Numbered from the stretch's first letter, positions 1,646-2,187 are shown. The stretch: 64,000 nt of DNA from Escherichia coli (GCF_044324785.1 NZ_CP172127.1), one strand, 5' to 3'. Notes: generated by a model not told the origin, from the letters alone. A program made the numbers and translations.

Positions 1646-2187
1646 TGTTAAACCGTGATTTTGATCATCTATCAACCCTGCTCCATCTTTTTTTTGAGCG
1701 TGACGATATTTGCCAAAAGCTTAATATTATTGATCAAAACGAGATCACCGGCTGGGAAGTTTGGTTCCAGGTGGAGTTTGCTAATATGCTTTGCTCAACA
1801 GACCATGAATGGTGGCGTGAACAAACACTATCCTGTGATATGCGCAAAAAGCCCGAGCGCCCCACCCTACGTACAGATTTTTTATTACGCAAAAAAGGCT
1901 GGGCACAAGATAGCTATATTGCGCTTGAAATTAAACAGAACAGAGATGCGACAAGTTGTGTTAAAAATATGATCGCAGACTTAGAGAAAAGCGCCAAAAT
2001 TAAACGTTCTGAGCTTGATTTGCGTAGTTTCTGGACTTTAGGTATTACTCCGATGATCGACAGAGAAAGACTGAACTCTCTCATCGACAGTTATTTAGAT
2101 GAGAAATTCTATCTTACTAAATCTCGTAAAAAACACGTTTTACTTAAAGAAATAAAAAATACACCATATTGCTATATTGTTATTTAA
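1646..2187 (+). CDS. Hypothetical 180-aa protein with a possible PD-(D/E)xK nuclease-like motif; strain-specific insertion between tsr and btsT
   Basis: ORF with AAAGGA Shine-Dalgarno 8 nt before ATG 1646; visibly AT-rich versus flanking core genes; residues ...EVEF...RTDFLL...IALEIKQ... fit an E / D / ExK spacing. No gene is expected here in K-12 as far as I recall. Confidence 0.5.

Follow-up and report, generated by a model that had tools for sequence, protein, structure and literature searches.

A stand-alone ORF at the polymorphic tsr-btsT site of Escherichia coli encodes a predicted PD-(D/E)xK-fold protein of an uncharacterised family, a candidate one-gene defence nuclease

Results

A conserved ORF lies between tsr and btsT

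We analysed a stretch of 64,000 nucleotides from one strand of Escherichia coli DNA (GCF_044324785.1 NZ_CP172127.1), referred to here as the window, in which an initial annotation had placed a small AT-rich ORF between tsr and btsT. The tsr start codon (minus strand) ends at 1415 and btsT begins at 2480, and thus the interval is 1064 bp, in agreement with the ~1.06 kb first estimated. As the annotation had described, this interval holds an ORF of 180 codons plus stop with a Shine-Dalgarno sequence, and the GC content of the ORF (0.376) is below that of both tsr (0.537) and btsT (0.560). The start at 1646 required correction by one nucleotide: the ATG is at 1645, and the frame from 1646 runs into stops. 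The features of the interval discussed below, in window coordinates, are as follows:

1446..1472, minus strand: left boundary of the variable segment, putative tsr promoter TAAAGTTT-N11-GCCGAAAA (sequence and six-way alignment)
1475..1644, plus strand: AT-rich upstream segment, present only in ORF-bearing haplotypes and absent from the K-12-like interval
1633..1636, plus strand: Shine-Dalgarno-like AGGA, with the ATG 8 nt further on (read from the sequence)
1645..2187, plus strand: CDS of the stand-alone protein with predicted PD-(D/E)xK fold, 180 aa and stop, of a family without a Pfam or NCBIfam model
1756-1758, plus strand: codon of E38
1774..1776, plus strand: codon of E44, an invariant acidic residue in core helix 38-50 of the AlphaFold2 model
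1876..1878, plus strand: codon of D78, a putative metal-binding Asp in the second core strand (74-82) of the model
1927..1935, plus strand: codons of E95-I96-K97, the (D/E)xK motif, in the third core strand (91-98) of the model
2188..2251, plus strand: downstream spacer of the ORF haplotype (alignment)
2252..2267, plus strand: right boundary, palindrome TGTGATCATCATCACA in the btsT promoter region, with TGTGAT-N5-TCACAT in six of six haplotypes

The encoded protein, with a predicted mass of 21.6 kDa, already carries the annotation of a hypothetical protein in hundreds of genomes, the O157:H7 reference strains among them; in RefSeq it is WP_001558494.1 in 18KM2445, the nearest genome, and the allele of O157:H7 EDL933 is WP_000934391.1. 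Our literature search on the protein accessions and the probable O157 locus tags found no paper that mentions them. The ORF is probably ECs5314, since ECs5313 is yjiY.

We found strong evidence of constraint on the protein sequence. The ORF differs from the O157:H7 allele by 47 synonymous and only 8 non-synonymous changes (dN 0.019, dS 0.676, dN/dS 0.028), and dN/dS was 0.03-0.07 in other allele pairs with unsaturated dS. A word-indexed search found 39 close homologues, in Escherichia, Citrobacter, Enterobacter, Serratia and Pseudomonas, and in a profile search over 1.84 billion cluster representatives, 322 passed E <= 1e-3 and 64 of these E <= 1e-30, such that the family comprises at least 322 clusters; almost all of the proteins are 175-195 aa long. 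Judged from these comparisons, the ORF is almost certainly a real gene, belonging to a conserved protein family under strong purifying selection, and not a chance ORF.

The protein is predicted to have a PD-(D/E)xK fold with a conserved active site

The residues with restriction-endonuclease-like spacing pointed out in the annotation lie in the segments WEVWFQVEF (E38 and E44), RTDFLL (D78) and ALEIKQ (E95 and K97). We examined their conservation in 141 family representatives, taken at the 50%-identity cluster level, and found that the residues expected of a PD-(D/E)xK site are 99-100% conserved: E44 in all 141, D78 and K97 in 140 each, and E95 in 139. E38 is likewise kept in 139 of the 141 representatives, and W40, Q42, E59 and D112 are conserved in at least 96% of them. 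Thus, the proposed motif held up across the family.

An AlphaFold2 model built on the family alignment (pLDDT 87.1, pTM 0.85) has an alpha-beta-beta-beta-alpha-beta core, which two N-terminal helices precede, and so the structure prediction that the annotation had suggested does find a nuclease-like core. In this model, the acidic residue D78 lies on strand 2, E95-x-K97 on strand 3, and E44 in the first core helix, the arrangement of a PD-(D/E)xK active site. In a fold comparison, the best matches were CinB (9.0), CidB (8.0), R.SwaI (7.5), the R2 endonuclease domain (7.1), BglI (7.0), the Cas4 protein SSO0001 (7.0) and DrdV (6.9), with BglII, OkrAI, BstYI, NucC, McrC and Shedu also among the matches. 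A Foldseek search of AFDB50 returned the protein's own family, all members of which are uncharacterised, with automatic labels on a few of them (TnsA N-terminal domain, PD-(D/E)XK nuclease, or restriction endonuclease). On the strength of the model, we consider it very probable that the protein has the PD-(D/E)xK (restriction-endonuclease-like) fold. Because the active site is conserved, we predict that the protein is an active nuclease, which we regard as likely, if less firmly so than the fold.

Library searches place the protein in no defined family

We searched several libraries with the window protein or with family profiles. There was no match in NCBIfam and nothing significant in PHROGs, and sequence searches of the PDB with two profiles gave nothing relevant, such that no solved structure is detectable by sequence. 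In Pfam, the only signal was a sub-threshold one to TnsA_N (PF08722; E = 0.1 for the window protein); across 77 family members, the best value was 5.4e-3, with 6 of the 77 at E <= 0.1 and none at E <= 0.001. Some UniRef members carry the TnsA_N label. We nevertheless rejected a TnsA-like endonuclease or a Tn7-type transposon, since the protein differs from TnsA in having no TnsA C-terminal domain, no TnsB- or TnsC-type genes or other transposition genes lie nearby, and all of the matches are below threshold.

Comparison with known defence proteins gave a similar picture. There was no significant match to a known system among the 5027 defence models of PADLOC-DB v2.0.0 (systems to 2023). The sole match was a weak and partial one to an orphan-methyltransferase (oMTase) profile, PDLC03734 (E 2.4e-4, 18 bits), in which ORF residues 108-172 (window 1966-2160) align with positions 182-245 of 444. 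Shedu (SduA) and type IV enzymes such as Mrr provide methylase-independent nuclease defence, as proposed for the window protein, which gave no match to the PADLOC models for Shedu, Mrr or type IV systems; moreover, no sensor or reader domain is recognisable in the window protein, which is roughly half their size. The small type II enzymes BglII, BamHI/BstYI and SwaI are similar in size and fold, but there is no detectable sequence relationship, no Pfam PD-(D/E)xK family is matched, and no locus contains a cognate methyltransferase.

The best structural match, the nuclease domain of the Wolbachia cytoplasmic-incompatibility factor CinB (PDB 7esz), has 9% sequence identity and belongs to a 659-residue chain with a cognate CinA, whereas the window protein is single-domain and has no partner. 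Closest in concept is Brc142. Single-gene integron cassettes have been reported to give phage resistance, and one of them, Brc142, was described as a "putative dimeric restriction endonuclease" and gave three species protection from many phages (bioRxiv 10.1101/2024.07.02.601719). Both would be one small, partner-less nuclease gene, carried by an integron cassette in the case of Brc142, but this likeness is one of description and the two may be unrelated. We conclude that the protein is best called a member of a new, uncharacterised family within the known PD-(D/E)xK superfamily.

The tsr-btsT site is polymorphic in E. coli

We examined the distribution of the ORF and found it, as an accessory gene, in 365 of 5426 complete E. 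coli genomes (~7%), in every case on the chromosome. The O157:H7/O55:H7-type allele, with 80-90% nucleotide identity to the window, accounts for 361 of these 365 genomes, and the allele of the window occurs in two. In K-12-like strains, the tsr-btsT interval is 377 bp and lacks the ORF; in many other strains, the hpa (4-hydroxyphenylacetate catabolism) cluster lies directly upstream of btsT (for example, in loci L083 and L084), at the place of tsr and the ORF in the window. The site can therefore be empty, hold the hpa cluster or hold the ORF, which makes at least three states. Two strains carry damaged copies, natural intermediates in the decay of the gene: the ORF remnant in strain N50 has two internal deletions (locus L019, 2324-2883), and the copy in strain GS04 has an internal stop (locus L018, 2501-3043).

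The order tsr-ORF-btsT-yjiX-yjiA is also found in Citrobacter portucalensis, C. braakii and other Citrobacter, in Phytobacter, and in another Enterobacteriaceae genome. Thus, the description of the ORF as inserted between core genes is correct insofar as the site is polymorphic, but a recent insertion fits poorly with the shared gene order and with the N50 remnant. From both of these observations, the simplest reading is that the ORF would be an old resident of the tsr-btsT site, since lost from most E. coli, rather than a recent arrival. We found no terminal repeats, target duplications or attC-like elements around the window copy, and a transposon-like insertion was rejected on the first two grounds; with neither flanking repeats nor an attC-like element, this copy does not look like an integron cassette either.

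The variable segment spans 1475-2251, and both boundaries are kept in all six aligned haplotypes. On the left, cross-genus conservation ends at ~1474, just past TAAAGTTT-N11-GCCGAAAA, which we take to be a sigma-28-type tsr promoter; on the right, the segment is bounded by the palindrome TGTGATCATCATCACA, which we assume to be a CRP-type site from its consensus and from the regulation of btsT. The ORF thus sits exactly between the putative tsr sigma-28 promoter and the putative btsT CRP site. The AT-rich segment upstream of the ORF presumably holds the gene's own promoter, and a promoter scan found no match to the sigma-70 consensus there. Downstream, there is a weak hairpin without a T-run (2214-2264; DNA fold z-score -2.4, with 3 of 200 shuffles folding as well) and no match to the terminator consensus on the plus strand of the interval. 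No Rfam family matches the tsr-btsT interval.

We also note that the alleles of this gene are unusually divergent. Between the window and EDL933 (locus L017) alleles, dS is 0.68 for the ORF compared to 0.07-0.08 for tsr and btsT (about eight times higher), and exceeds even the dS of btsT between E. coli and Citrobacter (0.52). Similarly, window positions 1500-1649 have 63% identity to the O157:H7 haplotype, compared to 97-100% in most windows of the flanking genes. The alleles may be ancient, much older than the species, with recombination in the conserved flanks exchanging them; alternatively, the rate of evolution may be locally raised several-fold at all sites of this AT-rich gene, or an allele may have been imported from a different Escherichia lineage.

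Relatives stand alone and occur in integron cassettes and prophages

Scanning a single genome of each species located the family at 51 loci, which belong to Gamma- and Betaproteobacteria and, in one case, to Campylobacterota. The initial annotation had called the gene stand-alone, and this was so in every context that we examined: in the 51 species loci, no neighbour family was common to several genera, whether among ORFs of at least 70 aa or small ORFs of 20-120 aa, and no nucleotide element in the flanks was conserved across genera. [quoted passage not shown] In the species loci, the median gap to the neighbours is ~186 bp on each side, and 8 of the 51 copies are split or truncated. The GC content of the ORF is below that of its surroundings in 43 of 47 loci, with a median difference of 9 points.

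In contrast to the window copy, relatives in Vibrio and Colwellia are integron cassettes. In Vibrio genomosp. F10 (locus L049), the ORF (608-1144) has a 120-nt repeat of VCR/attC type (TAACAA...GCGTTA) on either side, at 460-582 and 1153-1274, and the attC-to-attC span is ~570 nt for an ORF of 537 nt. In V. hepatarius (L051) and Colwellia (L042), it is found among small same-strand ORFs within arrays of 9-11 such repeats. There was no integron integrase within the fetched DNA of the attC arrays.

Other relatives are carried by lambdoid Pseudomonas prophages. In P. japonica (L075/L031), the family member (7983-8531) is antisense to its neighbours, in a moron position, with NinB and NinG on one side and a metallopeptidase, an HNH endonuclease, the large terminase and the portal protein on the other; related IMG/VR prophages (L078-L082) have a family member at the same place. 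The metallopeptidase had been labelled a transposase in PHROGs, a lead that we dropped since it is the phage metallopeptidase PF18894. No protein-level homologue was found in GenBank phage genomes or PLSDB plasmids; the prophage copies came from IMG/VR.

Some loci have defence-like neighbours. In Serratia fonticola, the family member is in an integrase-bounded island beside a type I HsdR; a contig from a viral metagenome has AbiEi and WYL genes near it; and SIR2, an OLD/Gabija-like ATPase and a UvrD/GajB-like helicase lie nearby in other loci. About four of 20 large neighbours tested were defence-like, and the others that we tested against NCBIfam were metabolic or cell-envelope proteins.

Two further arrangements were seen among the relatives. 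In Acinetobacter (L061, L063, L064 and L066), the homologue is downstream of acnD between the arms of a direct duplication of ~105 nt that consists of the acnD 3' end and terminator hairpin and is far longer than a transposon target duplication. A metagenomic member, P0067 (295 aa), has an extra N-terminal segment of 105 residues that looks like a fragment of an IS200/RAYT-type transposase; the protein has no Pfam match, and we dropped the transposase lead for this reason. P0067 is probably a gene-calling fusion.

A restriction-gene island lies downstream of yjiA

The tsr-btsT gap adjoins the classical immigration-control region. At a distance of 3.7 kb from the ORF, the window has a restriction-gene island with a type I restriction-modification system and a DUF262-type enzyme. 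Downstream of yjiA, the window departs from 18KM2445 over 5851-17229, with collinearity back at 17230; at that place, 18KM2445 has mrr-hsdRMS-symE-mcrBC, a large helicase and yjiT. The ORFs in this part of the window are as follows:

5884-6252, minus strand: island ORF of 122 aa, with no NCBIfam or PADLOC match
6325-7059, minus strand: island ORF of 244 aa, with no NCBIfam or PADLOC match
7103-9202, minus strand: 699-aa protein matching the PADLOC Orf5, HEC-06 and type IV models
9478-11832: hsdM of the type I system
11832-13115: hsdS of the type I system
13112-16375: hsdR of the type I system
16441-17154, plus strand: island ORF of 237 aa, with no NCBIfam or PADLOC match

The ORFs of 122, 244 and 237 aa may be further uncharacterised cargo of the island.

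Discussion

A candidate one-gene defence nuclease

We considered what a small nuclease without a partner might do. If the predicted active site is functional, D78 and E95 would bind Mg2+, K97 and E44 would complete the site, and the protein would cut nucleic acid, most probably DNA; by analogy with restriction enzymes of about its size, it would probably act as a homodimer. No methyltransferase or antitoxin accompanies the gene, and so the choice of substrate would have to spare the host genome. As with Shedu or the type IV restriction enzymes, the protein might be directed at phage DNA that is modified, at free ends or at particular structures. One-gene defence is the role that we favour for a partner-less nuclease that spares its host in this way. 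Phage-defence genes are known to be harboured by integron cassettes and prophage morons, and the occurrence of relatives on both makes the gene a reasonable candidate for phage defence.

We hold the explanation as a whole, a catalytically intact, partner-less PD-(D/E)xK endonuclease that serves as a one-gene defence against invading DNA, to have a little less than an even chance of being correct, and much the same holds for the defence role taken by itself. The most specific form of this reading is more tentative still: the gene may belong to a family that is an undescribed one-gene anti-phage system, a minimal, methylase-independent PD-(D/E)xK nuclease of ~180 aa that would respond to a certain feature of incoming DNA. 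Such a family would circulate in Proteobacteria by way of integron cassettes, morons of prophages and islets in the chromosome, and would be carried by all of the O157:H7/O55:H7 lineage and not by K-12. Several observations count against defence. The position conserved across several enterobacterial genera could reflect a host function instead, and we also weigh on that side the lack of a PADLOC system match, the few defence neighbours, the lack of a homologue in GenBank phages or PLSDB, and the lack of a sigma-70-like promoter.

Alternative roles

A nuclease of host DNA metabolism, such as a structure-specific enzyme of repair or recombination that takes no part in conflict with mobile elements, is unlikely in our judgement, although it survives best among the alternatives. 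The fold is also like those of Cas4/RecB-type and NucS-type repair nucleases, the position beside tsr is kept across several enterobacterial genera, and many neighbours of the family are ordinary metabolic genes. However, the distribution is patchy, with the gene in ~7% of E. coli and at one locus each in only 51 species representatives, and the low GC content, frequent inactivation and carriage by integrons and prophages are unlike those of housekeeping repair genes.

We also considered a free-standing, selfish endonuclease of the homing type, which would cut alleles of its own insertion site that lack the ORF and spread by repair from a copy that has it, with no need of a benefit to the host. 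PD-(D/E)xK homing enzymes exist. A stand-alone ORF for a predicted nuclease, present in some strains, absent from others and situated in the gap that separates two conserved genes, fits this explanation; haplotype divergence peaks at or beside the ORF and falls off into the flanks like a co-conversion tract, and the copy in the Pseudomonas prophage, among packaging and nin genes beside an HNH endonuclease, is in a typical place for a homing gene. Nevertheless, we consider homing improbable: many relatives are integron cassettes and would owe their mobility to an integrase instead of homing, both the dN/dS of 0.03 and the position conserved across genera fit a long-selected function better than a cycle of gain, decay and loss, and homing requires that both alleles often share one cell, which is rare at chromosomal loci.

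The initial annotation had also raised an addiction gene, in which case the nuclease would be the toxin of a toxin-antitoxin-like pair and its antidote a small protein or RNA, adjacent or overlapping. An unrestrained nuclease is expected to be toxic, the CinB nuclease, to which the structure is most similar, serves as the toxin in a toxin-antidote pair, and both integron arrays and the region adjacent to yjiA often hold toxin-antitoxin genes (BrnTA, RelB/YafQ). The comparison of loci speaks against such a pair, since no neighbouring ORF of at least 20 aa or flanking nucleotide element is common to the genera, no antidote is conserved along with the family, and there is no Rfam family in the interval. 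Moreover, the Vibrio cassette is the ORF alone, with no room between its attC sites for a second gene; an integron cassette of one ORF must be self-sufficient, which weighs against both an addiction module and the remnant of a classical restriction-modification system. The gene is also readily lost in nature, as judged from remnants and pseudogenes, contrary to what is expected of an addictive element. An unrecognised antisense RNA could have escaped our searches as the antidote, but overall we consider an addiction role very unlikely.

Least likely of all is an orphan type II restriction endonuclease, now silent or inactive after the loss of its methyltransferase, since, despite a size and fold like those of BglII, BamHI/BstYI and SwaI, no recognisable upstream promoter, AT-rich surroundings typical of silenced foreign DNA and the weak partial match to an orphan-methyltransferase profile, no methyltransferase is adjacent in the ~60 loci examined, and the catalytic residues and the whole protein are under strong purifying selection across distant taxa, unlike a silent relic.

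Implications

The tsr-btsT gap of E. coli emerges as a polymorphic site with three states, one of which is this ORF. If the protein does work as a stand-alone nuclease, it would be among the smallest self-sufficient nuclease modules that bacteria exchange, and this raises the question of how 180 residues without a partner could distinguish foreign nucleic acid from that of the host. The system is a clean experimental target, as K-12 is naturally without the gene whereas the O157:H7 reference strains have it. Should the defence reading prove wrong, there would still be a predicted fold and an active-site assignment for a family of at least 322 clusters that has neither a Pfam nor an NCBIfam model.
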